Positions 4,966 to 46,622 of a DNA stretch of 64,000 bases are shown piece by piece. The position numbers and the translations under genes are program-made. Location of the stretch: contig JAJRSK010000021.1 of the NCBI GenBank assembly GCA_024278835.1, positions 5,306 to 69,305 on the forward strand, written 5' to 3'. This DNA comes from Campylobacterales bacterium. Lineage in GTDB: Bacteria > Campylobacterota > Campylobacteria > Campylobacterales > QNZT01. How positions within the stretch are numbered: position 1 is the first letter of the stretch; each line of letters starts with the position of its first letter. The notes beneath the pieces were generated by a model. It had not been told where the DNA came from and searched no databases. It was given only the letters and a program-made list of their open reading frames with translations.

Positions 4966-6177
4966 ATGAATACCTTAAAGCGTGAAGTTTCACTCTCTAT
5001 GCTTATCTTTTATGGCTTGGGAAATATCTTGGGTGCGGGTATCTATGTGCTTATCGGTGAGATTGCTGGGGTGAGTGGATATTATATGCCGCTCTCTTTT
5101 ATCATTGCATGTGTGGTTGTCTTTTTCACCGCACTCTCTTATGCCGAACTCTCATCGCGTTATCCTGTGAGTGCGGGAGAAGCGGTTTATATCTATGAGG
5201 GGTTTGGAAGTGAAAAACTCTCTATCATGATAGGCTTGATGATAGCCTTTAGTGGGTTATTATCCTCGGCGACTATCATTCATGGCTTTTATGGGTATTT
5301 ACATACCTTTTTAGAGTTACCTTCTTTTATCATCTCCACTCTCTTGATATTCTCTCTTATGCTTATCGCTATATGGGGGATTGGTGAGTCGGTCAAAGTA
5401 GCTTCGATATTAACGATGGTAGAAGTATTTGGTCTTTTGTTGGTTATTTATGTCGCTGCTCCTTATATAAACTTTGATACTCAACATTTGCAAAAACTGA
5501 TTCCTCCTATAGACTTTGCAGTAACCAATAGCATTATTTTAGGTGCATTTTTAGCTTTTTATGCTTTTATAGGTTTCGAAGATATGGTAAATATCGCACA
5601 AGAGGTTAAAAATCCAACAAAAACGATGCCAAGAGCTATCATCATCGTGCTTATCACTTCAACACTACTTTATATCTGCGTTGCGTTAGTTTCTATCTTT
5701 GTACTTACGCCTGATGAACTCTCTTCTACCTCTGCACCACTTGCTATGGTTTATGAAAGTGCCACAGGTAATAAAGCGGTTATGCTTAGTTTTATAGGAA
5801 TGTTTGCAGTGATAAATGGTGCTTTGATACAGATGATTATGGTGTCGCGTATATTTTATGGGATGAGTGTTAAAGGGTGGTTGCCAAAGTTTTTGGGCGT
5901 GGTGCATAGTAAAACAGACACACCGATAAATGCTACGGTAATGGCGGCTATGATGATAGGGATATTGACCGCGGCATTGCCTCTTTTGACATTGGCACAG
6001 TCAACAAGTTTTTTAATCTTCATTGTTTTCATCTTCGTCAATATAGCTTTAGTAAAAATCAAATTAAAACATCCAAAACCAGAAGGTGTTAGAATATATC
6101 CTTTGTTGGTTCCCATCGTGGCGATTTGTCTAAATCTTGTGATGCTTGGGGTACAAGTAGCCTCGATGATAGATTAA
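4966..6177 (+). CDS. APC-superfamily amino acid permease
   Basis: Polytopic membrane protein with the N-terminal GxGNILGAGIYVLIGE motif typical of the APC family. Confidence 0.8.
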   Translation: MNTLKREVSLSMLIFYGLGNILGAGIYVLIGEIAGVSGYYMPLSFIIACVVVFFTALSYAELSSRYPVSAGEAVYIYEGFGSEKLSIMIGLMIAFSGLLSSATIIHGFYGYLHTFLELPSFIISTLLIFSLMLIAIWGIGESVKVASILTMVEVFGLLLVIYVAAPYINFDTQHLQKLIPPIDFAVTNSIILGAFLAFYAFIGFEDMVNIAQEVKNPTKTMPRAIIIVLITSTLLYICVALVSIFVLTPDELSSTSAPLAMVYESATGNKAVMLSFIGMFAVINGALIQMIMVSRIFYGMSVKGWLPKFLGVVHSKTDTPINATVMAAMMIGILTAALPLLTLAQSTSFLIFIVFIFVNIALVKIKLKHPKPEGVRIYPLLVPIVAICLNLVMLGVQVASMID

Positions 6178-7394
6178 AAATCATAACTAGTCTGTAGATA
6201 TACTCTATCTAGATTGCTCTTTTTCCCCTCTTGCGATTCTCTTGTTGCATGGATATATTCGCAGGCGAGCATCAAGTTTTTGATAGGGGTATATTGGATA
6301 TCAAGATGTAGTGAATTAGCAGATTTATCGATGTGTGAAAGGTCAAGGTTGTTGTTACTTTTTACTATCCCATAGGCAAGATTTGAGCGGAGCTTTCTAC
6401 TCCACCATTTTTGGTATGCGATATGTCCTCCATAAGAGAGTTGTGCTTCTAAACTTCCTTCAGTATCGATAGATGCACCAGGGAAAAAACTGGTGGCAAA
6501 GTATCTACCGATGCCTTTTCCTCCTAAAAGACTAAAGCGGATATCATCATTTCCCCATGTTTTTATCTTTTGTGAAAAGTGTATGCCGTATCCAAATGTG
6601 CTATCACTAATCTCCTCATCTATACGAAGTTCTCTGGCTAGTATAGAGAGTGAAAACTCTCCAAGCTTACTATATCGTTGATAATTTAAAATCAAATCTG
6701 GAACTCTATCATCGTTGATTGTGATAGTGTCACCTGTGCTTGTCATGATAACTGATTCTGGTTGTTCTAGGGAGATAGAAAGTGAAGCATGTTTAAGAGC
6801 GAATGTATAGCGGATGACAGGTTGTCTTACAAAAACATCATTGACTGGTGCCCTAAGTGTAGAGGGTTTTGCGTTGCCTGTAAAGGCACTATTTGTTTGA
6901 CCTACAGTCCAGCCCATATAATCAAAATAAGCATAGCGTAGTCGTAGTCCGTAAGAGTTGGAATTTTTTTCGTTGGCGTTGCTTCCCCAAAAGTCAACCT
7001 CTAAAAGTGTCAGCAATGGATGGATATCATCGACTGTTGTACGTGTCTTAACCCAGAATTTACTATTTCTTGCTGAGAGGGTTAACTCTGATGTTTCGCC
7101 TTTAGACTTGCGTGGGATATTGTTTGCGTTGAAAAAATTATCACTATTATTGCTCCCTCCTGCTTTGCCACTTGCTGTAGAGAGGTAGATAGTATCTAGT
7201 TGTATGCGACCACCGAGTATCATAGTTGTATCAGAAGAGCGGAGGTTGATAACACCTTTGTGGATATTTGACTTGTTTTCCAGTATAGCTAGGCGTTTGT
7301 TAAGTGCATCAATGGTTAAGGAAAGGTTTTGCTCTGCATGCAGAAAAGGTACATAAAGCGTAAGAAAAAATAAAAATTTACTTAAATTTTGCAT
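6174..7394 (-). CDS. Porin-like outer-membrane beta-barrel with N-terminal coiled coil (DcaP-like architecture)
   Basis: Signal peptide from the internal Met (MQNLSKFLFF...HA). A short heptad segment is followed by alternating beta-strand pattern. Terminal aromatic ...SYDF. Confidence 0.55.
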   Translation of the reverse strand: MQNLSKFLFFLTLYVPFLHAEQNLSLTIDALNKRLAILENKSNIHKGVINLRSSDTTMILGGRIQLDTIYLSTASGKAGGSNNSDNFFNANNIPRKSKGETSELTLSARNSKFWVKTRTTVDDIHPLLTLLEVDFWGSNANEKNSNSYGLRLRYAYFDYMGWTVGQTNSAFTGNAKPSTLRAPVNDVFVRQPVIRYTFALKHASLSISLEQPESVIMTSTGDTITINDDRVPDLILNYQRYSKLGEFSLSILARELRIDEEISDSTFGYGIHFSQKIKTWGNDDIRFSLLGGKGIGRYFATSFFPGASIDTEGSLEAQLSYGGHIAYQKWWSRKLRSNLAYGIVKSNNNLDLSHIDKSANSLHLDIQYTPIKNLMLACEYIHATRESQEGKKSNLDRVYLQTSYDF

Positions 7395-7848
7395 GGCATT
7401 GGTTGCAGATATCAATCATCTGTTTGAGTGTGGGATTTATCTTTTCTGTTTCGTATTGGGTTGTGATTTTTTTTAATTCTTTAGCACTATCTTCAAGGGC
7501 AGAGGCAAGTGTACGAAACTCTGCTGCATCAGCTTTGTTTAGATTTTTGATATCAGGCATAGTCTTTTGTAGATTTTTTGTTTCAAGAACAATGTCCTCT
7601 AAATACTCTTCCATTTCCTGCGTGTATTGTATACGTTTTTTGTCACGTTCTAACTCACTATAAAAACGTTCAAAAATAAGATTTTCAAACTCTATCATGA
7701 TAGTTGTCAATTCTTGACTTTTAAGTGCATGTTTGGAAGGAGTAATCAGCTGTGGAAGTGTAGTTGTCGTGCTGTCTTGTACTTTTGAATCACAGACTGT
7801 AAAGATGAGAAGAATAAGAAGTGTGAGAAAAAAAGTACGCACCATCAT
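7378..7848 (-). CDS. Class II (four-helix-bundle, c'-like) c-type cytochrome
   Basis: Signal peptide, helical sequence, and a single CNQCH haem motif a few residues from the C-terminus, as in cytochrome c'/c556. Confidence 0.6.
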   Translation of the reverse strand: MMVRTFFLTLLILLIFTVCDSKVQDSTTTTLPQLITPSKHALKSQELTTIMIEFENLIFERFYSELERDKKRIQYTQEMEEYLEDIVLETKNLQKTMPDIKNLNKADAAEFRTLASALEDSAKELKKITTQYETEKINPTLKQMIDICNQCHAKFK

Positions 7849-7900: not shown

Positions 7901-8515
7901 CTATGAAATCAGCGGTACAAATACAAATCCAAGAAACTCTTCACTCTCTATCTTGCTCTGTGAAATTTTCGTAAATTTGAAAATTGAGTTTTGAACAGGT
8001 ATGACGAGTATGCCTCCAATTTTGAGTTGTAAAAAGAGTTCTTCCGGAATCTTCTGTGCACTAGCTGATACCAAAATCTTATCAAATACTTCACTAGGTA
8101 TACCCAGCTTGTCACCAGCCTTTTGGATTTTACAATGTTTTCCAAATTGAAACTTTGCAAGATTATTTTGTCCTATCTCAATGAGTTCATCAACTCTCTC
8201 AAGACCTATTACACTTCCCTTATCTCCTACTATATGACACAGGAGAGAAGTTGTCCATCCCGAACCTGAGCCGATATCAAGGATTTTTTCGCTTCTCTTT
8301 GGATCTAGAAGTTCTAGCATAAAGGCTACGGTTGTTGGTTGGGAGATAGTTTGATTTTTACCGATAGGCAGGGGTGCATCGATATACATGTTTTCTTCAT
8401 ATCCTTGTGGAATAAAATACTTTCTATCAATTGTCTGGAACGCTTCAATGATTTTAGGACTTTTTAATACGCCAGATAACATCATGCTGTCGATGAGATT
8501 TTGGTTTGTTTTCAT
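7901..8515 (-). CDS. pcm: Protein-L-isoaspartate O-methyltransferase
   Basis: QTISQP motif and the SAM-binding ILDIGSGSGW block. Confidence 0.85.
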   Translation of the reverse strand: MKTNQNLIDSMMLSGVLKSPKIIEAFQTIDRKYFIPQGYEENMYIDAPLPIGKNQTISQPTTVAFMLELLDPKRSEKILDIGSGSGWTTSLLCHIVGDKGSVIGLERVDELIEIGQNNLAKFQFGKHCKIQKAGDKLGIPSEVFDKILVSASAQKIPEELFLQLKIGGILVIPVQNSIFKFTKISQSKIESEEFLGFVFVPLIS

Positions 8516-10929
8516 TGTTTTATCGTCTTTTCTAATTTTACGATATTTTGTAATGTTTTTAGTACGCTATCTGGATTTAGGCTGATAGAATCTATGCCGA
8601 GCTTTACTAAAAATTCTGCCACTTCAGGATAGTCAGACGGTGCTTGTCCGCAGATACCACTATGGCGCTTATTTCGTTTTGCTCCCTTAATTGCCATCTC
8701 AATCATTTTTAAAACCCCTGGATCTCTCTCATCATAATCAAATGCAACAATCTGGGAATCCCTATCCACACCAAGGGTTAATTGTGTGAGGTCATTGCTT
8801 CCGATACTGAAACCATCAAATATCTGACTAAAGCCGTCAATCTCTATGACATTGTTGGGTATTTCACACATTACATAAATTTTTAATCCATTTTCACCTT
8901 GCACAAGACCATGTTTTGCCATAGCATCTACGACCCGTTTTCCCTCTTCTACGCGTCTGCAAAATGGAATCATTAATATGACATTGTCAAATCCCATTTC
9001 ATCACGAACGCGTTTCATCGCTGCACACTCTAGAACAAATCCCTCCTTGTATGAGGGATGCGTATAGCGTGAAGCTCCTCTAAATCCTATCATGGGATTG
9101 TCTTCTTTTAACTCAAAAAATTCTCCCCCAAGAAGTGTGCTATATTCGTTTGATTTAAAGTCACTCATACGCACAACACAAGGATTTGGATAAACCGATG
9201 AAGCGATGGTTGCTACACCTTCTGATAATGTTTTTATGAAAAATTCTTCCATATTTTTGTGTGCACTACTGAGATTTAAAAGCGCATCTTTAGTTTTGTT
9301 ATCTACTTTTTCAGGGTGAATGAGCGCCATGGGATGTGCTTTGATGTAAGTATTGATGATAAATTCCATTCTTGCCAATCCTATACCGTCTACGGGAAGA
9401 GAACTGAGTGAAAATGCCATCTCTGGATTGCCAAGATTCATCATGATATCTGTTTTGGTTTTTGGAAGTTTGCTTAGATCGGTTTTACTAACTTCAAAAG
9501 AGAGTTCTCCTTCATAGACATAACCTGTTTCACCCTCTGCACAGCTAACTGTAACCATTTGAGTATCTTTTAATATATCGGTTGCATTTTCAGTTCCGAC
9601 TATCGCAGGTATACCCATCTCTCTGGCTACGATAGCAGCATGACAAGTGCGTCCACCCCTGTTTGTCACAATCGCAGAGGCCAATTGCATGACAGGTTCC
9701 CAATCAGGTGTTGTGTTGTCTGCTACAAGCACTTCACCTTTTTTAAATGTATCAAGTTTGGAACTATCATCAATGATATGTACCCTTCCTTGTGCGATTT
9801 TTGTGCCTACTGCCCGACCTGTTACGCGTTTAACTCCCGACTCTTTCATCTGGTACATTTCTAAGATATTTCCTTTTTTTTGAGACTCAACAGTTTCAGG
9901 ACGTGCTTGTACCATGTAAATTTTTCCATCGATGCCATCTTTTGCCCACTCCATATCCATGGGTTTGGTAAAACCAGCTTTTTGGGAGTAGTGCTCTTCA
10001 ACTTTTATAGCATAATCAGCCAATACCATGACATCTTCATCTGTGATACAAAAATGCTCTTGTTCTTCTTGTGTAGTAGCGATGTTTTTTGTATATTGAT
10101 TTGAAAGATTACTTCTATTTAGCGTATCAGTAAAAATCATTTTAAGGCGTTTTTTACCTAAATGACGTTTGAGTACAGTTCTGTGTCCTTTTTTAAATGT
10201 AGGTTTATGCACATAAAAACTATCTGGAGCGATAGTACCTTGGACGACATTTTCTCCCAAGCCATAAGCAGCATTGATAAAGACAACATCTTTAAAACCA
10301 CTCTCTGTATCTATGCTAAACATCACACCACTAGAGGCGAGGTCTGAACGCACCATTTTCATCACAACCACAGAGATAAGAACTTTCAGATAATCAAATT
10401 TATTGACATGTTTATAATGGATAGAACGATCGGTGAAGTTAGAAGCGATACAGCGTTTGTACGCATCAAGTAATTCATCTTCACTCGATATGTTGAGGTA
10501 AGTCTCATTTTGACCGGCAAATGAAGCTTCTGGAGAATCCTCAGCCGTAGCAGAACTTCTCACCGCCAAAGAGAGTCCCTCTTTATACTCATCTTTTAAC
10601 TTTTGATAACCTTTTAAAATCTCTTTTTTCAAATCTTCAGGCAATATGCACGCATCTATAATCTTGCGACATGCACTACCTCTTTGTTGCAACATGGTTA
10701 CATCGTTAGGATTTAAGTCATCCAACTCTGCGTGAAGTTTTTTCCATGCATCATTAAAATCCAGCACATAGCTATAAGCATCGGCAGTAACAGCAAAACC
10801 ATTTGGGACTAGGACACCTTGATCTGTTAGATTTTGATACATCTCCCCCAAAGAAGCATTTTTACCACCTACTTTAGTGACATCTTCTATGCCTATTTCA
10901 CTGAACCATTTTATATATTGTGTTTTCAT
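8512..10929 (-). CDS. ppsA: Phosphoenolpyruvate synthase
   Basis: Full-length match to the PpsA architecture: ATP-grasp N-domain, phosphohistidine swivel (GGRTCHAAIVAREMGIP), and PEP-utilising C-domain. Confidence 0.95.
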   Translation of the reverse strand: MKTQYIKWFSEIGIEDVTKVGGKNASLGEMYQNLTDQGVLVPNGFAVTADAYSYVLDFNDAWKKLHAELDDLNPNDVTMLQQRGSACRKIIDACILPEDLKKEILKGYQKLKDEYKEGLSLAVRSSATAEDSPEASFAGQNETYLNISSEDELLDAYKRCIASNFTDRSIHYKHVNKFDYLKVLISVVVMKMVRSDLASSGVMFSIDTESGFKDVVFINAAYGLGENVVQGTIAPDSFYVHKPTFKKGHRTVLKRHLGKKRLKMIFTDTLNRSNLSNQYTKNIATTQEEQEHFCITDEDVMVLADYAIKVEEHYSQKAGFTKPMDMEWAKDGIDGKIYMVQARPETVESQKKGNILEMYQMKESGVKRVTGRAVGTKIAQGRVHIIDDSSKLDTFKKGEVLVADNTTPDWEPVMQLASAIVTNRGGRTCHAAIVAREMGIPAIVGTENATDILKDTQMVTVSCAEGETGYVYEGELSFEVSKTDLSKLPKTKTDIMMNLGNPEMAFSLSSLPVDGIGLARMEFIINTYIKAHPMALIHPEKVDNKTKDALLNLSSAHKNMEEFFIKTLSEGVATIASSVYPNPCVVRMSDFKSNEYSTLLGGEFFELKEDNPMIGFRGASRYTHPSYKEGFVLECAAMKRVRDEMGFDNVILMIPFCRRVEEGKRVVDAMAKHGLVQGENGLKIYVMCEIPNNVIEIDGFSQIFDGFSIGSNDLTQLTLGVDRDSQIVAFDYDERDPGVLKMIEMAIKGAKRNKRHSGICGQAPSDYPEVAEFLVKLGIDSISLNPDSVLKTLQNIVKLEKTIKQ

Positions 10930-10958: not shown

Positions 10959-12113
10959 TCATGATACTCTCTTTTTTATACTCAAAAGATAAGCTATCAA
11001 AGCAAAACTCACCCCTAACATTGAAAAAGCCAAAGCTTCTTGTGCCCCAAAATACTCCCAAAGCATTCCACAAATCATAGCACCAAGAGCTGCAAAAAGT
11101 GCAACACCTGCATAAAATACCCCATACACAGAGCCTTTGTTATGTGCAAATTGTGCGATGTAAGTACGGTTTGCATTGAGAGAAGTAACGGTAAAAATAC
11201 CTAAAAATGCATAAGCAACCCAGACAGAGAGTTGACTTCCCCACATGAGTAATAACTGTGCTACAAGAGCTGAAATATAAGCCATAGCCATAACCTTAAA
11301 ATAACCGATTTTATCTATAAGCTTGCCGATAGGAAAACTTATCAATGTCTGTGTCAGCGTAGAGACAACAAACAAAAGAGGAATCCAAAATGTTTCAATT
11401 CCAACATGTGAAGCTTGCATAGTAAAAAATGCATCACTAAAGAGGAAAAAGAGAAATACAAAGTAAAACAATAATGTTTTGATAACAGAAATATCTTCTT
11501 TTGTGATGGAAAGTTTCTCTTTGTAGCTTAGTGTTTTTGGCACATCTTTGACAAAAAAAGTAACGATGATAAGTGCGAAAACCCCTGGTAAGAGTGTGGC
11601 TATAAAAATAGTTCGTAAAATATCTTCACTCTCTCCCCAAAACAGCAAAACAGCAAAAAGGATTAAAGTTCCACTTAATTCCCCTGCGATATCCATAGTC
11701 TTGTGAAAACCGAAGGTTTTTCCCTCTGCTTTACTTTTGGCATATTTAGAAATCAGCAAATCTTTAGGAGCTGAACGGATACCTTTTCCCAATCTCTCGA
11801 TACCTCTAAGTGCTGCGACACTTTTCCACCCATAACTTAGTGCGATGAGAGGCTTGCTAAGAGTAGAAAGTGCGTAACCACTAACCATCAAGGGTTTAAC
11901 AATCCCATAGCGATCACTAATATAACCGCTAACAAGCCTCAATGCATATGAAATAAATGTCGCAATCGCCACGATAAAACCCAATTTATCATACCCTTGA
12001 TGTAACACACCAACAACAAAAATAGGCAAAATAGGGTTAATCATAGCAGATGCCATATCTGTAAAAAAACTAACCCAACCTAACATAATGATATTTTTAT
12101 CAATGTTTTTCAT
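10959..12113 (-). CDS. MFS transporter
   Basis: 12-TM-like profile. The ATG at 12113 is preferred over the TTG at 12167 because a -10 element (12133-12138) lies inside the longer ORF. Confidence 0.7.
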   Translation of the reverse strand: MKNIDKNIIMLGWVSFFTDMASAMINPILPIFVVGVLHQGYDKLGFIVAIATFISYALRLVSGYISDRYGIVKPLMVSGYALSTLSKPLIALSYGWKSVAALRGIERLGKGIRSAPKDLLISKYAKSKAEGKTFGFHKTMDIAGELSGTLILFAVLLFWGESEDILRTIFIATLLPGVFALIIVTFFVKDVPKTLSYKEKLSITKEDISVIKTLLFYFVFLFFLFSDAFFTMQASHVGIETFWIPLLFVVSTLTQTLISFPIGKLIDKIGYFKVMAMAYISALVAQLLLMWGSQLSVWVAYAFLGIFTVTSLNANRTYIAQFAHNKGSVYGVFYAGVALFAALGAMICGMLWEYFGAQEALAFSMLGVSFALIAYLLSIKKRVS

Positions 12114-12158
12114 ATCAGTTTCTTTTTTATGTATTATATAAAATATTTGAAAAAATAA

Positions 12159-12174
12159 TGCTACCAAAGTTGCA
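12159..12174. promoter_or_regulatory. Crp/Fnr-type box TGCTACCAAAGTTGCA between divergent MFS-ppsA-pcm and PFOR promoters
   Basis: 16-bp inverted repeat. It lies 21 nt from TATCAT (12196-12201, plus strand) and 20 nt from TATAAT (12138-12133, minus strand). Confidence 0.6.
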
Positions 12175-12219
12175 CGTATTAAAATCCAAGAGTAGTATCA
12201 TGATAGTGGAGGAGTTTTT

Positions 12220-15200
12220 ATGTCTAGAAAAATTATGGATGCCAATGAAGCAGTTGCCAGAATTGCTCATAAAACCAATGAAGTGATTGCTATTTATCCT
12301 ATTACTCCTGCATCAAGTATGGGAGAGTATGCAGATTTCTATTCTGTGCAGGGAAAAGAAAATGTCTTTGGAACTGTTCCAAAGGTGATAGAGATGCAGA
12401 GTGAGGCGGGAGCTGCTGGGGCAATACATGGAGCTCTTCAGAGTGGTTCTTTAACAACAACTTTTACCGCTTCACAGGGGCTTTTGTTGATGCTTCCAGA
12501 TATGTATAAGATTGCAGGGGAGCTAACTTCTACAGTTTTCCATGTAGCAGCTCGTTCTATTGCTGCACAGGCACTTTCGATATTTGGTGACCATACAGAT
12601 GTGATGCAGGTGAGGCAGAGCGGATTTGCTCTTTTAAACTCTTGTGATGCACAAGAGGCACAGGATTTTGCTCTTATCGCACAAGCTACAACGCTAAAAG
12701 CTAGAGTTCCAATTCTTCACTTTTTTGATGGTTTTCGTACCTCTTCGGAGTTAATGGGAGTGGAGACGATAGGTGATGAGATTATTCGTAAGATGATTGA
12801 TATCAAGCTTTTAAATGAACATAAAGCAAGGGCACTTGATCCTGAAAAACCAGTGATAAGAGGAACTTCACAAAATCCTGATTTTTATTTTCAAGGGCGA
12901 GAGAGTGTAAATCGTTATTATGATGCTTTTCCAGCTATCTTGCAAGAGAACATGGATAAGTTTGCAAAATTGACTGGTAGAGAGTATCATCTATTTGAGT
13001 ATGATGGCAGTAAAAATCCTGACAGAGTGATTGTTATCATGGGTAGTGCTTCAAAAACAGCTAAGGAGAGTGTAAAAGAACTCGTAAAAATGCATGAAAA
13101 TGTAGGTGTTGTAACAGTTAGACTTTTTCAACCATTTGATAAGGAGACTTTTTTAAAAATTATTCCACAAAGTGTGCAAAAGATTGCTGTGCTAGATCGT
13201 ACGAAAGAGGTGGGCTCTTCTGGTGAGCCACTTTATTTGGATGTAGTAGAGGCATTTAGCCAGAGTGTGATACATAAAAAAAGAGAAATGCTGCCTGTTA
13301 TCATCGGTGGTCGTTATGGGCTCTCTTCAAAAGAGTTTACGCCTGCGATGGTTAAAGCGGTGTTTGATGAGTTAAAAAATGATGAACCGAAAAATCCTTT
13401 TACGGTTGGTATCATAGATGATGTGACGCATCTTTCACTTTTCTCTGATAAAGATTTTATACTAAAAAATGATAAAACCACACAAGCACTTTTTTATGGT
13501 TTGGGTTCAGATGGTACGGTAGGGGCAAATAAGAATTCCATCAAAATTATTGGAGAAGATAAAGGACTTTTTGTTCAGGGGTATTTTGTGTATGACTCTA
13601 AAAAGGCAGGGTCTATGACGATTTCACATTTGCGGTTTGGTAAAGAGCTGATTGAGTCAACTTATCTTATCGAAAAAGCTGATTTTATCGGAGTTCATCA
13701 ATTTGTCTTTTTAAAAAAATATGACATTTTAAAACATGCTGTAAAAGGAGCAACAGTTCTTATAAATAGTCCTTATGAGATAGACGAAACATGGGATAAA
13801 CTTCCAAGAATTGTTCAAGAACAGATTATAAATAAAAACTTAAAACTTTATGCGATAAATGCTTACGAGGTGGCAAAATCTTGTGGCTTACATAGGCATA
13901 TAAACACTGTCATGCAGACTGCTTTTTTTGCACTAACAGATATCATAGAAACCAAAGAAGCGATACAAAAGATAAAAGAGTCTATACAAAAAAGTTATGG
14001 GCTTAAAGGTGAGATTGTAGCCCGTTTAAATTATTGTGCTGTGGATCATACCCTGACCGAGCTACAAGAGATTAAAGTTCCTCAAAGTGTTAGTTCTGAT
14101 ATAGAGATGATAGAAGCACTTAAACTAAAAGCAGAAGATCAATTTTTAGAAGAAGTTACAGCTAGATTAGTTGCAAAAAAGGGAGATGAAATTCCTGTAA
14201 GTCTGGTTCCAGCTGATGGTACATGGCCACTTGGAACAACGCAATATGAAAAAAGAAATATTTCACTACAAGCACCATTGTGGGATTCGACTATCTGTAT
14301 ACAGTGTAACCGATGTACTGAAGTTTGTCCGCATGCCGTGATAAGATCTAAAGTATTTAATCCAAGTTTGCTTGAAAGTGCACCAGAAGAGTTTCAACAT
14401 ATAAAAGCCAAAGGCAAAAAATTTACTGGCAATGATTTTACGATACAAGTATCAGTAGAAGATTGTACAGGGTGTACGCTCTGTGTGGAAGAGTGCCCTG
14501 CTATTAACAAAGAAAATCCAGATAAAAAAGCGATAAATATGCAGGATATTGAACCAAGAATTAAAGAATCAGTACAAAACTGGGACTTTTTTATGAAGAT
14601 TCCTGAGTATGATAGAAGCAAGCTTGATGTGAGTAAAACCAAAGAGGCGCAACTATTAAGACCTCTTTTTGAATTTTCAGGTGCCTGTGCGGGATGCGGA
14701 GAAACACCGTATTTAAAACTCCTTTCTCAACTTTTTGGAGATAGATTGATGATAGCAAATGCCACGGGATGCTCTTCTATCTATGGTGGAAATTTACCCA
14801 CAACACCATGGGCAACAGATGAAAATGGCAGAGGGCCTGCATGGTCAAACTCTCTGTTTGAAGACAATGCGGAGTTTGGATTGGGATTTCGTACTACCGT
14901 AGATAAACAAAATATATTTGCCAAAGAGCTTCTTTTAAAACTAAAATTCGAAATTGGTGAAGAGTTAGTAGAAAAAACTCTAAATACAGAGCAAAAAAGT
15001 GAAGAAGGTATCAAAACACAAAGAGAAAATGTAGAAAAAATCAAAGAAAAACTTTCAACTATAAAAGGAGATGATGCAAGACTTCTTGAGGGAGTGCTTA
15101 GTTATCTTATCGTTAAATCCATTTGGGCAGTTGGTGGTGATGGTTGGGCATATGATATAGGTTACGGTGGATTAGACCATGTTTTGGCAAGTGGTGCAAA

Positions 15201-15795
15201 TATCAATATTTTGGTTTTAGATACAGGTGTGTACTCCAACACAGGAGGACAAACTTCCAAAGCGACACCACTGGGTGCAGTAGCAAAGTTTTCGGCAGAG
15301 GGTAAGAACAAGGTACAAAAGGATTTGGCACTTCATGCTTTGGATTATGATGATGTTTATGTGGCAAGAGTGGCATTAGGAGCAAATGATAAGCAAACGC
15401 TTAATGCTTTTTTAGAAGCCCAGTCTTATGATGGTCCCTCACTTATTATCGCTTATAGTCATTGTATCGCACATGGATATGATTTAAAATTTGGTATGAA
15501 ACATCAAGATATGGCAGTAAAATCAGGACTTTGGCCACTATTTCGTTACAATCCAGCTTTGAAAGAGGAGGGTAAAAATCCATTTTCTTTAGATTATAAA
15601 GAGCCAAAACTTCCAGTAGAAGAGTATATGTATAGTGAAAATCGTTTCAAAATGGTTGAGAAAATAAATCCTGAGCTTGCAGAAACATTTATAAAAAAAG
15701 CAGATGAATTTGCCAAAAGAGAGTGGACTCGCTATCAAGACTTAGAAAATTCTGGGAATTTGACATTTAAAAAAGATAAGATATGCCGAACTTAA
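12220..15795 (+). CDS. nifJ: Pyruvate:ferredoxin (flavodoxin) oxidoreductase, single-polypeptide NifJ type
   Basis: 1191 aa. Two ferredoxin-type CxxCxxCxxxCP motifs (CIQCNRCTEVCP, CTGCTLCVEECP), the GCGETPY and GGDGWAYDIG TPP-binding blocks. Confidence 0.95.
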   Translation: MSRKIMDANEAVARIAHKTNEVIAIYPITPASSMGEYADFYSVQGKENVFGTVPKVIEMQSEAGAAGAIHGALQSGSLTTTFTASQGLLLMLPDMYKIAGELTSTVFHVAARSIAAQALSIFGDHTDVMQVRQSGFALLNSCDAQEAQDFALIAQATTLKARVPILHFFDGFRTSSELMGVETIGDEIIRKMIDIKLLNEHKARALDPEKPVIRGTSQNPDFYFQGRESVNRYYDAFPAILQENMDKFAKLTGREYHLFEYDGSKNPDRVIVIMGSASKTAKESVKELVKMHENVGVVTVRLFQPFDKETFLKIIPQSVQKIAVLDRTKEVGSSGEPLYLDVVEAFSQSVIHKKREMLPVIIGGRYGLSSKEFTPAMVKAVFDELKNDEPKNPFTVGIIDDVTHLSLFSDKDFILKNDKTTQALFYGLGSDGTVGANKNSIKIIGEDKGLFVQGYFVYDSKKAGSMTISHLRFGKELIESTYLIEKADFIGVHQFVFLKKYDILKHAVKGATVLINSPYEIDETWDKLPRIVQEQIINKNLKLYAINAYEVAKSCGLHRHINTVMQTAFFALTDIIETKEAIQKIKESIQKSYGLKGEIVARLNYCAVDHTLTELQEIKVPQSVSSDIEMIEALKLKAEDQFLEEVTARLVAKKGDEIPVSLVPADGTWPLGTTQYEKRNISLQAPLWDSTICIQCNRCTEVCPHAVIRSKVFNPSLLESAPEEFQHIKAKGKKFTGNDFTIQVSVEDCTGCTLCVEECPAINKENPDKKAINMQDIEPRIKESVQNWDFFMKIPEYDRSKLDVSKTKEAQLLRPLFEFSGACAGCGETPYLKLLSQLFGDRLMIANATGCSSIYGGNLPTTPWATDENGRGPAWSNSLFEDNAEFGLGFRTTVDKQNIFAKELLLKLKFEIGEELVEKTLNTEQKSEEGIKTQRENVEKIKEKLSTIKGDDARLLEGVLSYLIVKSIWAVGGDGWAYDIGYGGLDHVLASGANINILVLDTGVYSNTGGQTSKATPLGAVAKFSAEGKNKVQKDLALHALDYDDVYVARVALGANDKQTLNAFLEAQSYDGPSLIIAYSHCIAHGYDLKFGMKHQDMAVKSGLWPLFRYNPALKEEGKNPFSLDYKEPKLPVEEYMYSENRFKMVEKINPELAETFIKKADEFAKREWTRYQDLENSGNLTFKKDKICRT

Positions 15796-15822: not shown

Positions 15823-16269
15823 ATGATGAAGTTAGAAAACACGATGGTAATCGTAGCAGATTTAGGTGAGTTAAAGGTATATAGTGTGAAAAAAAGTGAA
15901 GGCTTGCTTGGCAACGAGATGAAAACTTCTTATACCTTGGAAGTGCTCAACAACATAGGATATATAGATGCACATAAAAAAATGGGTGAAGTGATGAGTG
16001 ATAGTGCTGGTAATTTCATGGGCTCTGCAGGAGAAGAGCATAACCGTGAAAATGAAAGAAAAAAGCGTTCACTTAAAGAGATTGCAGATGATATAGACAT
16101 CATTGTGGCAAATGAAAAACCAAAACAATTTTTTTTATCATTTCCAAAAGATATGCTTTCTAAACTAGTGGATGGTTTGAGTCAAAATACAAAGAATGTT
16201 TTACATAAAACCGTTTCAAGTAACTTAGTCAAAACGGATAAGAGTAAAATTTTGGCATACTTTGAGTGA
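15823..16269 (+). CDS. Hypothetical protein (possibly host-attachment / baeRF-like family)
   Basis: Strong RBS (AGGAGG). The family assignment comes only from weak recollection of the N-terminal IVADxGxxKVY pattern. Confidence 0.35.
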   Translation: MMKLENTMVIVADLGELKVYSVKKSEGLLGNEMKTSYTLEVLNNIGYIDAHKKMGEVMSDSAGNFMGSAGEEHNRENERKKRSLKEIADDIDIIVANEKPKQFFLSFPKDMLSKLVDGLSQNTKNVLHKTVSSNLVKTDKSKILAYFE

Positions 16270-16279: not shown

Positions 16280-16993
16280 TTAAATGATGTCTCCCTTTAG
16301 GGGGACTTTGGATGAGACGACTTTTTTGTTTTCTATCTTTAGAATTCTATCGCAAAGAGGAAACATCGCTTCATCATGCGTTACCATGATAACAGCAACA
16401 TTTTGATCTATGGCTATCTTTTTGAGCATCTTTACGACATCAACGGAGCGTGCAGAATCAAGTGCTGCTGTTGGTTCATCTGCCAGTATGATTTCAGGCT
16501 TGTTTGCCAAGGCTCTTGCTATGGCAACTCTTTGGTTTTGTCCACCTGAGAGTTGTGAAGGCAGAGCATGGGCTTTAGAGGATATATCAAAATATTCTAA
16601 AAGTGCCATAGCCTCTTTTTCTGACTGTTTTTTAGAGATGCCATTGGTTTGTGGTACTAGCGTGATGTTTTCAAGAACCGTCAAAAAAGGTATCAGATAA
16701 TGGGCTTGAAAGATAAAACCGATTTTTTCCCGTCGTATCTTTCTGGTCTCTTTGGTAAGCCACTTGTTATCATACACTTTTTCATCACCTAGATATATAG
16801 TCCCAGAAGTTGGCTCTTCTACGCATCCTATCATCATAAGAAGTGTGGTTTTTCCTGCGCCACTTGGTGCTATAAGTGCTACAAGTTCACCTTTGTTTAC
16901 ACTAAAAGAGGCACCATCTATCACTTCAACAAGATTGTCGCCAAATCCAAAATTTTTGACTAGATTTTCAACACGTATACTTTGTTCAGTCAT
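16280..16993 (-). CDS. ABC transporter ATP-binding protein (MacB/LolD-type)
   Basis: Walker A GSGKT-like APSGAGKTT, signature LSGGQNQR, Walker B ILADEPT. Confidence 0.9.
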   Translation of the reverse strand: MTEQSIRVENLVKNFGFGDNLVEVIDGASFSVNKGELVALIAPSGAGKTTLLMMIGCVEEPTSGTIYLGDEKVYDNKWLTKETRKIRREKIGFIFQAHYLIPFLTVLENITLVPQTNGISKKQSEKEAMALLEYFDISSKAHALPSQLSGGQNQRVAIARALANKPEIILADEPTAALDSARSVDVVKMLKKIAIDQNVAVIMVTHDEAMFPLCDRILKIENKKVVSSKVPLKGDII

Positions 16994-16994
16994 A

Positions 16995-18140
16995 TCAACC
17001 TCCTATCGCTGCTGCTGGATCAGCACTGATGACTTTTTTCACACCGATAAAAGAGGACAAAATAGAAAAGACCATCACAACTAAAAAAAGCATCCAGGCA
17101 TCAGGAATTTCCAAAACAACTCTTTTTGGAAAGTTATCATAAATCAGATGAGAAAAGATATTGCCAAATATAAAGGCTAAAAACCCAAAAAGGAGGGTCT
17201 CTTGTACAATCATTTTGATAATCATGCTGTTTGGTATACCGATGAGTTTCATGATAGAAATCTCTTTCATTTTCTCTAACGTCATGGTATAAATGATAAG
17301 TGCGATAATAATCGTAGAAACAGCGACCAAGATAGCAGTAAACATCCCTATTTGTTTAGAAGCCTTTTCGATGAGGTTTTTAGTCAGTATCTCTTTTTGG
17401 TCAGCTTTGGTATAAACACTTTTATGTTTATAGTCTCTTATCTCTTGTGCTACGGCGTCAGGAGAATAACCGTGTCGAAGGGAAGCTACAATCGTATTGA
17501 CCATATGAGAATCTCGGTTTATGATGCCTCTTGCTTTGTCACTTCTTATCCTGTTGTTGGAGTAGGAAAATTGTAATTCTTGGGCGTCTTTTAGGCTGAT
17601 ATAAACCAAGGGGTCACCACCTGAAGAGACGGTTCCCTTTGTGATACCTACGACATTAAAGTCGTTTCTACCAAGCGTGATACGTTCACCTATCCCAAAG
17701 CCTGTTTTATCAGTCACTACTATCTCATAATGGCTCTGTTTTAGACCTCTTCCCTCTATGATCCGTTCTGGATTGATAGCATCGAAACTGCCATGAGGAT
17801 CAAATCCGACTGCCACCACACGCACAGGTTTTACAGATGCAGGAAGTTGGATGTTTTGAAATGTTAGTGCTTCAGCTTTATCAATGCCAGAGATGGTACG
17901 AAGTGTATCTTTTAAATCTTCGTGTACTCTTGATGCTTCAGCAAATGGACCAAGTGTGTCTTCTTGCACCACCCATAAATCAACATTTAAATCATTTAAC
18001 AGTAACTCTGCATCAACAATCATACCTCTATAAACACCTATCATGATAAGAACGATACCTAGTAACATCCCCACACCCATGGATGTAACGATAAATTTTC
18101 CCAATCCATGTGCGATATCTTTTTGTGCTAAATTAATCAT
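16995..18140 (-). CDS. ABC transporter permease, FtsX/MacB-like
   Basis: N-terminal TM segment, a large periplasmic domain, and a C-terminal FtsX-type three-TM bundle. Confidence 0.8.
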   Translation of the reverse strand: MINLAQKDIAHGLGKFIVTSMGVGMLLGIVLIMIGVYRGMIVDAELLLNDLNVDLWVVQEDTLGPFAEASRVHEDLKDTLRTISGIDKAEALTFQNIQLPASVKPVRVVAVGFDPHGSFDAINPERIIEGRGLKQSHYEIVVTDKTGFGIGERITLGRNDFNVVGITKGTVSSGGDPLVYISLKDAQELQFSYSNNRIRSDKARGIINRDSHMVNTIVASLRHGYSPDAVAQEIRDYKHKSVYTKADQKEILTKNLIEKASKQIGMFTAILVAVSTIIIALIIYTMTLEKMKEISIMKLIGIPNSMIIKMIVQETLLFGFLAFIFGNIFSHLIYDNFPKRVVLEIPDAWMLFLVVMVFSILSSFIGVKKVISADPAAAIGG

Positions 18141-19279
18141 TAGTGAATGCTCATTCCCTCTTTGAGTGCTTTGTTCTTAGGTTTTTGTATCAAAATCTTT
18201 GCATTTTTATCAAGCCCTGTGATGCCTAACTCTTTTTCGCCCCTAGCGATAATCTTCACACTTTGAAAGTGTGCTTTTGCGTTTTTAGCTATCCATACAC
18301 CTGCTTTTTCACCTTGATAGATAAGCGCATAATTGGGGATTTTTGCGATATTATCAAAATGTTTTGTCGTGATGAATACTTCTGCTTGTTCATTCATAAA
18401 AAATGGAATCGGCAATGTGTCAAAAGCGATATTGACTTCTCTTTCTCCCGTGATGGCATCACTTTGGGCGACGATACGTTTGACTGAGCCTTTAAACTTT
18501 TTATCATTTTGTGAACGTAGTAGGATGGTGGTTGTTTGTCCTACTTTCACGTCACCACTAATTTTTTCATCGATATAAGCTTTAATCCAAACAGTTTTTG
18601 GATTTACTATGCGCAAGATACTTTGTGCAGGTGTTACACTTTGGTCTACCTCCGCATTTTTTGATATGACATAGCCATCGATGGGAGCGTAGATTTTGTA
18701 GCGAGAGAGTTTGATATTAAGTGCTTCAACACCTTTTTTTGCACGCTTAACTTCTATCTTTGCAGAGTTGACATGTGCTTTAGCGGCACTTAGTTGTGCA
18801 CTTATCCCATCAAAATCTGCTTTGACTTTATCGTATTCGGATTGTGAAACAAAAGATTGTTTTTTTAGTTTTGCGTAACGCTTATAGGTGAGATATGCGA
18901 GGTTTTTTTGCGCTTGTAGACTCTTGAGCTCTTTTTGAGATGCTTCTAGTTCTGAGATGGCTTTTTTTACAGAGATTTTTGCACTATCTAAAAGTTCAGG
19001 GATATCAACGCTATCTATGGTGACTAACAAATCTCCTTTTTTAACCCACAAGCCTTCATCACTTAAAATGGATAAAATCTTTCCACCTGTCTGTGCGTTG
19101 ATAGTATAAATATTTTTGGCACCGACATTACCGATACCAAAAACTTCTACATCTAAGGAGCCGACTGTTGGAGAGATAGTTGTATAGGTAGATTTTGGGA
19201 GATAGACTTTGTTATAAAAGATAAATCCACCGATGCCGATAATGGCAAAGATGATGAAATACTTCAGTAGTTTACTAAT
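18140..19279 (-). CDS. Efflux periplasmic adaptor (membrane fusion protein); start codon uncertain
   Basis: HlyD/MFP-type coiled-coil and beta-barrel segments. The canonical-start ORF begins at 19051 (TTG). The same frame stays open upstream and encodes the expected TM anchor KYFIIFAIIGIGGFIFY with no ATG/GTG/TTG. Confidence 0.7.
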   Translation of the reverse strand: MSKLLKYFIIFAIIGIGGFIFYNKVYLPKSTYTTISPTVGSLDVEVFGIGNVGAKNIYTINAQTGGKILSILSDEGLWVKKGDLLVTIDSVDIPELLDSAKISVKKAISELEASQKELKSLQAQKNLAYLTYKRYAKLKKQSFVSQSEYDKVKADFDGISAQLSAAKAHVNSAKIEVKRAKKGVEALNIKLSRYKIYAPIDGYVISKNAEVDQSVTPAQSILRIVNPKTVWIKAYIDEKISGDVKVGQTTTILLRSQNDKKFKGSVKRIVAQSDAITGEREVNIAFDTLPIPFFMNEQAEVFITTKHFDNIAKIPNYALIYQGEKAGVWIAKNAKAHFQSVKIIARGEKELGITGLDKNAKILIQKPKNKALKEGMSIH

Positions 19280-20529
19280 GATATGTTTCCTTTTAAGTAT
19301 TGGATACGATTTATCGCCATGCGTCTTGCATAGTAAGCTTCGAGTACGCCAAGACGTGCATCTAAGAGAAGTGAAATCGCATCTAATACTTCTATATACG
19401 TTGATAGTCCCTCTTTGTATCTAGCTTCAAGAATCTTTTTTGTTTGGATAGCTGCTTTTTCTTGCACTTGTTTTGCTTTTATCGTTACCGCATATCTTTT
19501 GATATCTATAAAAAGTGCCTGTATTTCTTCTTTTAGTGCTAAAATCTTTGATACTTTTTTCTCTTTTGCCATTTGTAGTCCTATCTGGGCTTTTTGGGCT
19601 TCAGCCGTGGTTCTTCCTCCGTTATAAAGAGGAATATTGAGAGTCAATCCAACCAGTTTGGAGTCATAACTATTTAAAGTATCCAAGTGATTATAAGAGG
19701 CAACGGCATCAAGTGAGCCATAGTGAGATGCGCGAGCTGCTTTGTGAAGCAGTCTATTTTTATCTATATTTTGGGTATCTATCTGCATCTGATAATTATT
19801 TTCCAAAATCATTTTTTCTATATTTTTATCAAAATGAGAAGTGTCTTTGATAACGTTATCTTCTAATACAACATCATCTTTTATCTCTTGTGCCATATAC
19901 AGAGATAAAGTTGTTTTTGCTTTTTCATAGCCCGCTTTAGCAGCAGCTAATTTATCTTTTGCCAGATAAAGGGCAGATAAAAATCGACTTGCATCTGCTT
20001 TTGTTTTTAACCCCTGTTTGACGAGTGCCTTTGATTGTGCATAATAAGCTTTTTTAGTTTCAAGATCTTTTTTTCTAACGGCTACCGACTCCTTTTGTAT
20101 GACTAAAAGAGCATAAAGTGACTTGACTTTATATGCCATCAAAGCTTTTGCATCTTGGAGTGAGAGTTGGGATATCTCTTCATCTAGTTTTGACGCTTCA
20201 ATTTTTGACGATGTTTTGGAAAAGTCCCAAATTTTTTGCTTTAGGTTTACGCCTACATTCCAACCATCTTCTTCTATCGTGTGAAAGGAGCCGTTTACTG
20301 GAAGTGCATAGGTTTGCAAGGGGTTGTATTCAGCGTGTAAGTTGATTTGAGGAAGATATTCTGCAGATGCGGCATCATAACTTTTTTTTGATTGTTTGAT
20401 TTTGAGTATAAAAGACTTTATATCTGGATGATTTGTCAGCGTTTTATCGATGCTCTCTTGCAGGGTTAGAGTTTGTGCATAAAGCGCATCTGTCAAAAGT
20501 ATACTTATAAGCAGTAAACGTTTATTCAT
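19264..20529 (-). CDS. TolC-family outer membrane efflux protein
   Basis: Signal peptide and the two-repeat TolC/OEP helical pattern. Confidence 0.85.
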   Translation of the reverse strand: MNKRLLLISILLTDALYAQTLTLQESIDKTLTNHPDIKSFILKIKQSKKSYDAASAEYLPQINLHAEYNPLQTYALPVNGSFHTIEEDGWNVGVNLKQKIWDFSKTSSKIEASKLDEEISQLSLQDAKALMAYKVKSLYALLVIQKESVAVRKKDLETKKAYYAQSKALVKQGLKTKADASRFLSALYLAKDKLAAAKAGYEKAKTTLSLYMAQEIKDDVVLEDNVIKDTSHFDKNIEKMILENNYQMQIDTQNIDKNRLLHKAARASHYGSLDAVASYNHLDTLNSYDSKLVGLTLNIPLYNGGRTTAEAQKAQIGLQMAKEKKVSKILALKEEIQALFIDIKRYAVTIKAKQVQEKAAIQTKKILEARYKEGLSTYIEVLDAISLLLDARLGVLEAYYARRMAINRIQYLKGNISLVNY

Positions 20530-22677: not shown

Positions 22678-22693
22678 TGTTACTTAAGTGGCA
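22678..22693 (-). promoter_or_regulatory. Crp/Fnr-type box (minus read TGCCACTTAAGTAACA) upstream of the STAS/beta-CASP pair
   Basis: 21 nt upstream of TACAAT (22656-22651). An RBS GGGAG precedes the ATG. Confidence 0.6.
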
Positions 22694-27703: not shown

Positions 27704-27752
27704 TGTCACTCTCCTCTACCCCTGTATTATAACCTTTTTTGTTTTTTGTTTT

Positions 27753-27768
27753 TGCTATATATGTAGCA
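27753..27768 (-). promoter_or_regulatory. Crp/Fnr-type box (minus read TGCTACATATATAGCA) upstream of the HlyD-ABC operon
   Basis: 21 nt upstream of TATAAT (27731-27726). Confidence 0.5.
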
Positions 27769-27807
27769 TCTTTTAAGAGTGCGCTAAAAGATGAATTGTA
27801 ATTGACT

Positions 27808-27823
27808 TGCTACTTTAGTACCA
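27808..27823 (+). promoter_or_regulatory. Crp/Fnr-type box TGCTACTTTAGTACCA upstream of the rhodanese gene
   Basis: 21 nt upstream of TATGAT (27845-27850). Confidence 0.5.
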
Positions 27824-27906
27824 TTTAAAACTATAGTTTTTTAGTATGATTTGATTACCTTTTGATATTTTATCAATCAAAGGAAAAAACTACTAAAGGG
27901 GATGTC

Positions 27907-31452: not shown

Positions 31453-31457
31453 AACTT

Positions 31458-34071: not shown

Positions 34072-34479
34072 TTAACAAAGTTCTTTTTTTACAAGTGGCA
34101 GTAACTCTTTTTCTATCAAATCAAGTGTTTTTTCATATTCGATGGTCTCTTTCCCGCTAGGGTCATCAAAACCTATATGGATGGTTTTAACTGCATTTGG
34201 AAACAGAGGGCAACTCTCTTTGGCATGGTCACAAACCGTTACGATGAGGTCAAATGCTGTATCTATAACGCTCTCTATCACCTTGGAATGATATCTCTCT
34301 CTCCAGTACCCTTTTTTCTCTAGTAGTGCTTGTGCATGAGGATTGACTTTTCCACTTGCTTTTACGCCTGAACTTTGTGCATCTACACAATCACCCAACT
34401 TGGCATTTATCAAGGCTTCTGCCATGATAGAACGACAGCTATTTCCAGTACATAGTATCAATACATTTTTCTTCATCAT
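34072..34479 (-). CDS. arsC: Arsenate reductase, thioredoxin-coupled LMW-PTPase type
   Basis: CTGNSCRS (CX5R-S) loop plus the downstream Cys pair VCDHAKESCP. The start at the tandem ATGs 34479/34476 follows an AAGGAG RBS. Confidence 0.85.
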   Translation of the reverse strand: MMKKNVLILCTGNSCRSIMAEALINAKLGDCVDAQSSGVKASGKVNPHAQALLEKKGYWRERYHSKVIESVIDTAFDLIVTVCDHAKESCPLFPNAVKTIHIGFDDPSGKETIEYEKTLDLIEKELLPLVKKELC

Positions 34480-37901: not shown

Positions 37902-41782
<3,881 letters not shown>

Positions 41783-41830: not shown

Positions 41831-41846
41831 TGCTACTTAGGTGGCA
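41831..41846 (-). promoter_or_regulatory. Crp/Fnr-type box (minus read TGCCACCTAAGTAGCA) upstream of the antiporter::ATPase gene
   Basis: 22 nt upstream of the extended -10 TGCTATAAT (41811-41803). An AAGGAG RBS precedes the ATG at 41782. Confidence 0.65.
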
Positions 41847-44454: not shown

Positions 44455-44470
44455 TGCTACTTAGGTGGCA
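44455..44470 (-). promoter_or_regulatory. Crp/Fnr-type box (minus read TGCCACCTAAGTAGCA) upstream of EI24-Usp
   Basis: 21 nt upstream of TATAAT (44433-44428). Identical in sequence to the box at 41831-41846. Confidence 0.65.
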
Positions 44471-46606: not shown

Positions 46607-46622
46607 TGCAACTTAAGTGGCA
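46607..46622 (-). promoter_or_regulatory. Crp/Fnr-type box (minus read TGCCACTTAAGTTGCA) upstream of HdeD-like/APC
   Basis: 21 nt upstream of TACAAT (46585-46580). An RBS TAGGAG precedes the ATG at 46551. Confidence 0.6.

Follow-up and report, generated by a model that had tools for sequence, protein, structure and literature searches.

The locus considered here raises the question of whether one palindromic box can serve two promoters facing away from each other, namely that of the gene for a pyruvate synthase (PFOR) and that of a divergent operon formed by an MFS transporter gene, ppsA and pcm. It belongs to a stretch of 64,000 nucleotides from a Campylobacterales bacterium (contig JAJRSK010000021.1), the whole of which was analysed and is hereafter called the window. 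The box, TGCTACCAAAGTTGCA, is a 16-bp palindrome at positions 12159-12174 and the single box in the 106-bp PFOR/MFS spacer. We consider it rather probable that it is the operator of a CRP/FNR-family regulator encoded at 41868-42530, one dimer of which would activate both the PFOR and the MFS-ppsA-pcm promoters. The features on which this proposal is built are the following:

12159..12174, no strand assigned: predicted operator of a CRP/FNR-family regulator, common to two divergent promoters
12196..12201, plus strand: -10 hexamer TATCAT of the PFOR promoter, 21 nt past the box
12133..12138, minus strand: -10 hexamer TATAAT of the MFS-ppsA-pcm promoter, 20 nt past the box
12220..15795, plus strand: PFOR, nifJ-type single-polypeptide pyruvate:ferredoxin/flavodoxin oxidoreductase, 1191 aa (Pfam)
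10959..12113, minus strand: MFS transporter, 384 aa, heading the operon on this strand (Pfam; homologue lengths)
8512..10929, minus strand: phosphoenolpyruvate (PEP) synthase, ppsA, after a gap of 29 nt from the MFS gene (Pfam)
7901..8515, minus strand: protein-L-isoaspartate O-methyltransferase, pcm, with an overlap of 4 nt at the ppsA stop (Pfam)
41868-42530, minus strand: candidate cognate regulator of the CRP/FNR family, 220 aa (Pfam cNMP_binding and HTH_Crp_2)

Re-reading of positions 11950-12400 bore out every coordinate that the first-pass annotation had given for the box, the two hexamers and the two ATGs. The half-sites of the box, TGCTAC and TGCAAC, are symmetric at five of six positions, and the -10 hexamers around it are 57 bp apart. 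On the plus strand the +1 is predicted at G12208, which places the box centre at -41.5 and leaves a leader of 12 nt that begins with the Shine-Dalgarno sequence GGAGG (GGAGGAG at 12208-12214) ahead of the ATG at 12220. On the minus strand the predicted +1 is the A at 12126 and the box centre falls at -40.5. The dimer centred near -41.5 that had been proposed for both promoters is thus retained for the PFOR side, while on the minus side the 20-nt spacing moves it to about -40.5. A consensus scan of the spacer found no canonical -35/-10 promoter in the right orientation, and no terminator was called there. The start of the MFS gene was set at ATG 12113 (384 aa) because its homologues are 379-393 aa long; a 402-aa open reading frame starting at TTG, which would extend into the box, is unlikely given these lengths. 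The arrangement predicted at 12159, in which one operator has promoters on both strands at a distance suited to activation, is that of single-site control of divergent promoters, and the earlier proposal of one box at class II distance from a -10 on both strands is in this respect supported in silico.

In the mechanism that we propose, a homodimer of the 41868-42530 regulator would occupy 12159-12174, which corresponds to the -35 region of two sigma-70 promoters that are arranged back to back and lack a -35 element, and would most likely contact RNA polymerase in the class II manner, with one of its subunits turned towards each polymerase. The enzymes of acetyl-CoA, pyruvate and PEP would thereby share their signal with the box-bearing genes for stress, ion transport and efflux, in a regulon that has seven or more sites in the window. 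From the sequence we infer that the regulator binds the box and that it activates rather than represses, as well as the transcript start positions and the signal.

The first alternative to be considered is that the box at 12159 is a chance palindrome, and this is excluded by its enrichment, which was far above chance. With up to three mismatches, the box sequence had 6 matches in the window (0.83 expected), and TGCNAC-N4-GTNGCA with up to one mismatch had 10 (1.2 expected). When a TAnnAT hexamer at 20-22 nt from a box with at most one mismatch was also required, 10 oriented sites were found against a mean of 0.05 in 40 shuffles, and a weight-matrix scan of the window returned 6 sites, all of them intergenic, against 0-1 in shuffles. 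The consensus of the copies is TGCWAC-N4-GTWGCA, and that of the family, derived from 75 sites, extends to aTGCWAC-twwa-GTWGCAt. The good copies begin at 12159, 22678, 27753, 27808, 41831, 44455 and 46607; all are intergenic and have TAnnAT at 20-22 nt in the direction of a gene, this distance being 21-22 nt in the six copies other than 12159, which are described below:

41831..41846, minus strand: box copy 22 nt past the regulator stop codon, with TATAAT at 22 nt
44455..44470, minus strand: box copy with TATAAT at 21 nt, upstream of a CysZ/EI24-like gene, a USP gene and possibly the regulator
46607..46622, minus strand: box copy with TACAAT at 21 nt, upstream of a DUF308 (HdeD-like) gene, 46279-46551
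22678..22693, minus strand: box copy with one mismatch and TACAAT at 21 nt, upstream of SpoIIAA-like and MBL/beta-CASP RNase genes
27753..27768, minus strand: weaker box copy, TGCTATATATGTAGCA, with TATAAT at 21 nt, upstream of a HlyD-ABC-ABC2-ABC2 efflux operon
27808..27823, plus strand: box copy with one mismatch and TATGAT at 21 nt, upstream of a rhodanese-like gene

The genes behind box 41831 are a fusion of a Na/H exchanger with a P-type ATPase (37874-41782) and an MgtC/DUF4010 gene. The pairing seen at box 22678 is also present in a related locus (L003), and the orthologous HlyD gene of another (L001) also bears a box. Box 44455 lies possibly upstream of the regulator itself, in which case autoregulation would be expected. 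The claim that the same box stands at stress and transport genes was thus sustained, with the box being a multi-copy regulon element of the window.

Some of these copies lie in arrangements that deserve mention. The divergent spacer 27709-27862 holds two boxes (27753 and 27808) 39 nt apart, one for the HlyD-ABC operon and one for the rhodanese gene, while one box is shared at 12159; therefore, this genome uses both designs. The minus-strand gene 37874-41782 encodes an unusual 1302-aa protein in which a complete Na+/H+ exchanger domain (aa 19-387) is fused to a full P-type cation ATPase, and a 76% identical match in locus L009 covers its first 431 residues only. The MgtC/DUF4010 gene (36645-37901, minus strand) overlaps the fusion gene, and the two form the operon behind box 41831.

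The regulator was followed beyond the window by an orthologue-alignment scan of species-representative genomes, which provided 80 loci (±10 kb, 979 kb in all) from Sulfurovum, Sulfurimonas and unclassified Campylobacterales. These regulator loci contained 75 exact TGCNAC-N4-GTNGCA boxes, distributed over 63 of them, whereas 59 scrambled palindromes of the same composition occurred in the 80 loci with a median of 0 and a maximum of 6. In the control, 676 kb of PFOR loci from many taxa, there was 1 exact box, located upstream of PFOR in a close relative. At most 170 nt downstream of the regulator gene, 52 exact boxes and 2 with one mismatch were found in 73 evaluable loci; the frequency of a box in random 180-nt windows was 2.4%. 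Apart from the box and the A and T that flank it, information content in these spacers was limited to the -10 hexamer and to an A located 7 nt after the hexamer. Among the cultured carriers of the regulator/box system are Sulfurimonas indica (L059), Sulfurovum lithotrophicum and Sulfurovum sp. NBC37-1. With respect to the box centres of these 80 loci (L001-L080), the central 4 nt read TAAA 27 times and TTTA 5 times relative to the downstream promoter, a bias that may reflect either the shared ancestry of orthologous spacers or a functional asymmetry, and positions 4 and 13 were often A/A.

The boxes also allowed us to consider whether the palindrome is something other than a protein operator, such as a sigma-54-like -24/-12 element (TGGCAC-N5-TTGCA), an RNA hairpin or a bidirectional terminator, all of which we find hardly credible. 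By eye the box resembles the sigma-54 consensus at 14 of 16 positions, but the near-invariant GG of the -24 element is replaced by GC (TGC, not TGG) in every copy, the consensus of the box is symmetric and a sigma-70-type -10 lies at a constant 21-22 nt; on these grounds a sigma-54 promoter was rejected. A stem of 6 bp with a loop of 4 nt and flanking A and T runs is possible, and many copies lie just past a stop codon. Nevertheless, the hairpin and terminator were rejected on weak folding energies (-2.1 to -4.3 kcal/mol; z-scores, -0.4 to -1.4) and on the lack of covariation between positions 4 and 13, which are A/A in 20 of 76 sites; in addition, copies are found between divergent genes, where no terminator is needed. 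The search of the whole window against Rfam families gave no matches.

Regarding promoter geometry, when all oriented box sides were taken together, offset 22 had 54 occurrences of TAnnAT and offset 21 had 21, with 0-5 at any other offset from 0 to 49, the background of TAnnAT at any given offset being below 1%. With the +1 set at the conserved A 7 nt after the -10, the box centre is at -41.5 (spacing 21) or -42.5 (spacing 22) from the predicted transcription start sites. The predicted phase between box and -10 is that of a class II activator, as in CRP, FNR and NtcA. The same measurements bear on the possibility that the regulator is instead a repressor occupying -49 to -34 and blocking RNA polymerase until a stress signal releases it, which we regard as unlikely. 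Such a role would agree with the overlap between the box and a region that polymerase must contact, and with -10 hexamers that are near-consensus (TATAAT at most sites) and might be strong alone. In addition, the sigma-70 promoters of Campylobacter carry gnTAnaAT at 4-8 nt from the start, on its upstream side, and lack a -35 element, and promoters of this phylum that work without a -35 need no activator in principle (PMC3847290). A repressor does not account well for a distance from box to -10 that is constant within 1 bp in more than 75 promoters, which is the signature of a stereospecific contact with polymerase. Repressor operators are usually variable in position and often overlap the -10 or the +1. 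The geometry equals, furthermore, that of class II activation by CRP, FNR and NtcA (PMC3898017).

Activation being preferred, the next point is which protein would bind. The product of 41868-42530 is a member of the CRP/FNR superfamily according to Pfam (cNMP_binding, 2.4e-13; HTH_Crp_2, 2.4e-10), its full-length profile matches solved chains of CRP, GlxR, NtcA, FNR and CooA, and the names of its homologues are those of Sulfurovum and relatives, which indicates that the window derives from a Sulfurovum-like member of the Campylobacterota. No variation was seen in its recognition helix, GTVRHVVERHL, among 20 orthologues with whole-protein identity of 57-85%; the helix presents R-H..E-R at the positions where CRP has R-E..G-R. 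This helix would fit a box that keeps the TG...CA ends of the 16-bp CRP frame and differs at the inner positions. Glu181 of CRP has an established role in the specificity for inner positions, and the change in the helix of the regulator agrees with it. It is very improbable, in our opinion, that a different DNA-binding protein recognises the box and that its position beside the CRP/FNR gene reflects conserved gene order only. The regulator-adjacent boxes are orthologous and could have been co-inherited with the downstream hsp20 and yfdX genes. Nevertheless, a 16-bp inverted repeat with TG...CA ends is exactly the site frame of CRP/FNR proteins, matched here by an invariant recognition helix, and the box stays by the regulator though the downstream gene varies (the ATPase in the window, YfdX or Hsp20 elsewhere). 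The only other regulators in the window are one TetR and one OmpR-type response regulator. A TetR protein normally controls the operon to which it belongs, and the sites of OmpR-type regulators are direct repeats.

The regulator could not be placed in any of the characterized subfamilies to which it was compared. FNR binds a [4Fe-4S] cluster with an N-terminal group of cysteines and a central Cys, but no invariant or nearly invariant cysteine was found among the 20 orthologues; therefore, an FNR-type Fe-S cluster is absent and O2 cannot be sensed in the way of FNR. The NCBIfam Fnr model gave 36 bits (cut-off, 228 bits), and the FNR site, TTGAT-N4-ATCAA, differs from the box. As for CRP, the Glu and Arg that contact cAMP are replaced by Thr79 and His88 (aligned to M. 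tuberculosis CRP), so that cAMP binding is unlikely, and a His occupies the position of CRP Glu181. The CRP model of NCBIfam reached 43 bits against an equivalog cut-off of 266, and the box, TGCWA-N6-TWGCA, departs from the CRP site, TGTGA-N6-TCACA. The NtcA model gave 42 bits versus a cut-off of 245, and its motif, GTA-N8-TAC, is also different. No curated NCBIfam family was reached by the regulator, with a best score of 48 bits versus 211. Judging from these residues, neither cAMP nor O2 detected by means of an Fe-S cluster is likely to be the signal perceived.

Three further observations concern the regulator and its gene. Around residues 184-194, the recognition helix and the helix that follows are rich in histidine (RHVVERHLHHLE), H185 and H190 being invariant or nearly so; a pH-dependent affinity for DNA exerted through these histidines is conceivable but purely speculative. 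The gene lies 3' of the CysZ-like and USP genes that are behind box 44455, after a 108-nt gap and without a box of its own, an arrangement that suggests positive autoregulation by read-through. In locus L003, a box is directly upstream of the regulator and is common to a divergent SpoIIAA-like gene.

Returning to the activation of both promoters by one dimer, the PFOR side was compared with only four close relatives (86-90% identity), all from metagenomes, and was box-linked in three of them (L081, L083 and L084). The ppsA side was box-linked in the two relatives with at least 86% identity (L166 and L168), in both of which an orthologous promoter (box, 20 or 21 nt, TATAAT, acaaaaaagaaa) is immediately upstream of ppsA. 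These promoters are as follows:

L081: box with one mismatch; TATCAT, the same hexamer as in the window, at 22 nt; PFOR
L083: exact box; TATAAT at 21 nt; PFOR, with a leader of about 110 nt
L084: box with one mismatch; -10 at 21 nt; LOG-like gene, then PFOR
L166 (ppsA, 89%): box with one mismatch, TGCAACTTTTGTAACA; TATAAT at 20 nt, atacaaaaaagaaa; ppsA
L168 (ppsA, 86%): exact box; TATAAT at 21 nt; ppsA

In the three PFOR relatives there was also a -10 at 21 nt on the opposite strand (spacings of 22/21 in L081, 21/21 in L083 and 21/21 in L084). In L081 the divergent partner of PFOR was a gene for a proton-pump-like P-type ATPase, and in both L083 and L084 it was an MBL/beta-CASP gene. Since opposite-strand hexamers are found with differing partner genes, the two-sided design recurs. 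These comparisons bear on whether the box is needed by only one of the promoters at 12159, the other -10 being constitutive and nearby by chance, or unused. We think this quite improbable. The off-mode spacing of 20 nt on the minus strand would be consistent with it, as would a PFOR leader of just 12 nt and the lack of a box at MFS homologues elsewhere. It is opposed by the separate box linkage of each side in relatives, by the 20-nt spacing retained in L166 and by the two-sided arrangement of L081, L083 and L084, with -10 hexamers at 21-22 nt that are poorly explained by the low background of TAnnAT.

It must be noted that several observations weigh against the activation of both promoters by the regulator, or limit its reach. 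The PFOR relative L082 (86%) has no box, and neither do the ppsA relatives at 78-79% identity (L167 and L169-L171). The MFS homologues of relatives are not box-linked. These absences imply that membership in the regulon is lineage-specific. With its 20 nt, the spacing on the minus side departs from the 21-22 nt mode and is matched only by L166, and activation there could be weaker or absent. Moreover, the missing -35 is by itself no argument for activator dependence because promoters of Campylobacterota generally lack it (PMC3847290). Finally, the roughly 54 regulator-adjacent boxes are orthologous and represent the conservation of one site rather than independent sites; therefore, they must be read as a deep phylogenetic footprint and not as 54 independent events. 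In the same comparisons, PFOR relatives from other taxa with 67% identity or less had no box.

Taking both sides together, PFOR and ppsA are predicted to be genuine, lineage-specific members of the regulon, the promoters of which are now on one operator in this genome, with the MFS gene intervening between the shared promoter and ppsA. As to the minus-side target that had been assigned, the part concerning ppsA stands on the conserved boxes of L166 and L168, while the part concerning the MFS gene does not find box linkage in relatives. The proposed co-regulation of the enzymes interconverting acetyl-CoA, pyruvate and PEP held up, with the boxes kept at PFOR in L081, L083 and L084 and at ppsA in L166 and L168. 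By this comparison of promoters, the predicted co-regulation of PFOR and PpsA (acetyl-CoA to pyruvate to PEP) is a real and conserved feature of the lineage.

With respect to the MFS gene, its homologues in L161 and L164 are in a USP-MFS operon without a box, and no box was present in the 78 nt on hand for L163. In L165 (positions 5001-6155; Sulfurovum lithotrophicum CP011308) the homologue is inside a HlyD-MFS-ABC-ABC2-ABC2 operon, a gene order that connects the MFS protein in function with the HlyD-ABC efflux operon, the latter having its own box (27753) in the window. Concerning the surroundings of ppsA, it is followed by pta and ackA in L169 and L170 (ppsA, 78%), and by genes for a PPK2 polyphosphate kinase and an FtsH-like protease in L166, which hints that the ppsA of this group is tied to acetate and energy-reserve metabolism. 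In L167, at about 5600-5850, two tandem copies of an element of about 90 nt (ctgccatgcaatggcaag...gtaggtatattgggctttg) are upstream of ppsA, beside divergent genes for YfdX and an amino-acid permease.

The genes that carry the box give some indication of what the regulon is for. In relatives the box is most often linked to genes for Hsp20 (about 48 loci) and for a secreted YfdX protein (about 24), and it also occurs at USP, SpoIIAA-like and HlyD genes and, once, at DnaK; genes for Hsp20 and YfdX are absent from the window. The members related to acid and ion homeostasis are HdeD-like and YfdX proteins, proton and cation ATPases and a Na/H exchanger, while those related to protein repair are PCMT, Hsp20 and DnaK. 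Taken as a set, the genes for Hsp20, YfdX, USP, P-type ATPases, beta-CASP RNase and efflux resemble a regulon of general stress or persistence. In this regard, general stress, persistence or pH/ion homeostasis fits the regulon at least as well as redox or anaerobiosis, at which the first-pass annotation had hinted. Campylobacterota are not known to have RpoS. In a 2019 review, no orthologue of FNR, ArcA or NarP was known in this phylum (PMC6682613).

Control of divergently oriented promoters from one CRP site has precedents, with at least 11 pairs in E. coli and a model system (PMC3105977, citing El-Robh and Busby 2002), and examples from this bacterium are araBAD-araC, gltA-sdhCDAB and xylAB-xylFGHR. 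The system described here shares with E. coli cAMP-CRP a 16-bp inverted repeat with TG...CA ends and a short spacer and, by prediction, a bound homodimer of the same superfamily (PMC3105977). It departs from CRP in the half-site, which is TGCWA here and TGTGA there, and in that both promoters are at a predicted class II distance. As for the class II promoters of NtcA in cyanobacteria, they have GTA-N8-TAC at -41.5, a TAN3T -10 and no -35. They are similar to the promoters studied here in having a palindromic CRP-family site, about 22 nt, a -10 and no -35 (PMC3898017). NtcA is also among the nearest solved relatives of the regulator by sequence (E of about 1e-15). The differences lie in the motif and the phylum, and in a regulon of stress, ion and carbon-entry genes here versus nitrogen assimilation in the case of NtcA.

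In gene content, the resemblance to the low-oxygen lxa locus of Burkholderia is striking. That locus includes USPs, alpha-crystallin/Hsp20, a sulfate-transporter-family protein, ABC genes, a cation P-type ATPase, a metal-dependent RNase and CRP-family regulators (PMC3721108), and the window and its relatives offer USP, Hsp20, CysZ-like, HlyD-ABC, P-type ATPase and beta-CASP RNase genes together with the regulator. In contrast, the lxa motif is an FNR/Anr box, TGA-N6-TCA, and the box here is TGCWAC-N4-GTWGCA, with a regulator that has no conserved cysteine. Effector-independent or non-cNMP regulators of the CRP family that govern stress or stationary-phase genes (including chaperones) without classical cAMP control include SdrP of Thermus thermophilus, DdrI of Deinococcus radiodurans and Cmr of M. 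tuberculosis. They belong to other phyla and use CRP-like sites of the TGTGA type.

Searches of the literature found no description of the regulator or of the motif in Sulfurimonas or Sulfurovum, and the CRP/FNR subfamily, the operator consensus and the stress-type regulon are apparently undescribed. We tentatively advance the possibility, in our view less likely than not, that this protein is the master activator of an RpoS-like stress/persistence regulon (Hsp20, YfdX, USPs, PCMT, P-type ATPases, beta-CASP RNase and efflux systems) in Campylobacterota of vents and sediments (Sulfurovum and Sulfurimonas). It would have an undescribed specificity, TGCWAC-N4-GTWGCA, read by an R-H..E-R helix, and would respond to a signal that is neither a cyclic nucleotide nor perceived by an Fe-S cluster, possibly pH or energy state via invariant His, Asp and Met residues, PFOR and PpsA having been recruited in this lineage. 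If true, the carbon flux between acetyl-CoA and PEP would be rewired during stress. Sulfurovum and Sulfurimonas dominate sulfidic vents and sediments, and their gene regulation is little known. The mechanism, with class II activation and one site for two promoters, is already standard, and the new part would be the regulator, the motif and the regulon, a triplet in which the motif is sharp, the geometry of the promoters is fixed and hosts are available in culture. The predicted placement under a stress-type regulator of two enzymes at the entry to carbon assimilation, pyruvate synthase/PFOR and PEP synthase, would be particular to one lineage.

Apart from the HlyD-ABC operon, the window is dense in efflux genes (16280-20529, 28411-33996 and 34072-35819). 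They comprise a MacB-type ABC system with an OEP protein, an RND pump of the AcrB type with a HlyD-like protein, an OEP protein and the TetR regulator, and arsenic genes (ArsB and a low-molecular-weight phosphatase); no box was found at the MacB, RND and ArsB systems of the window. The genes that flank the locus are the following:

7378-7848, minus strand: cytochrome c'-like gene, downstream of pcm
6174-7415, minus strand: porin-like gene, downstream of pcm and past the cytochrome c'-like gene
15823-16269, plus strand: gene of the Host_attach/baeRF (release-factor-like) family, 27 nt 3' of PFOR

The last of them, for which there is no NCBIfam family, is probably co-transcribed with PFOR.

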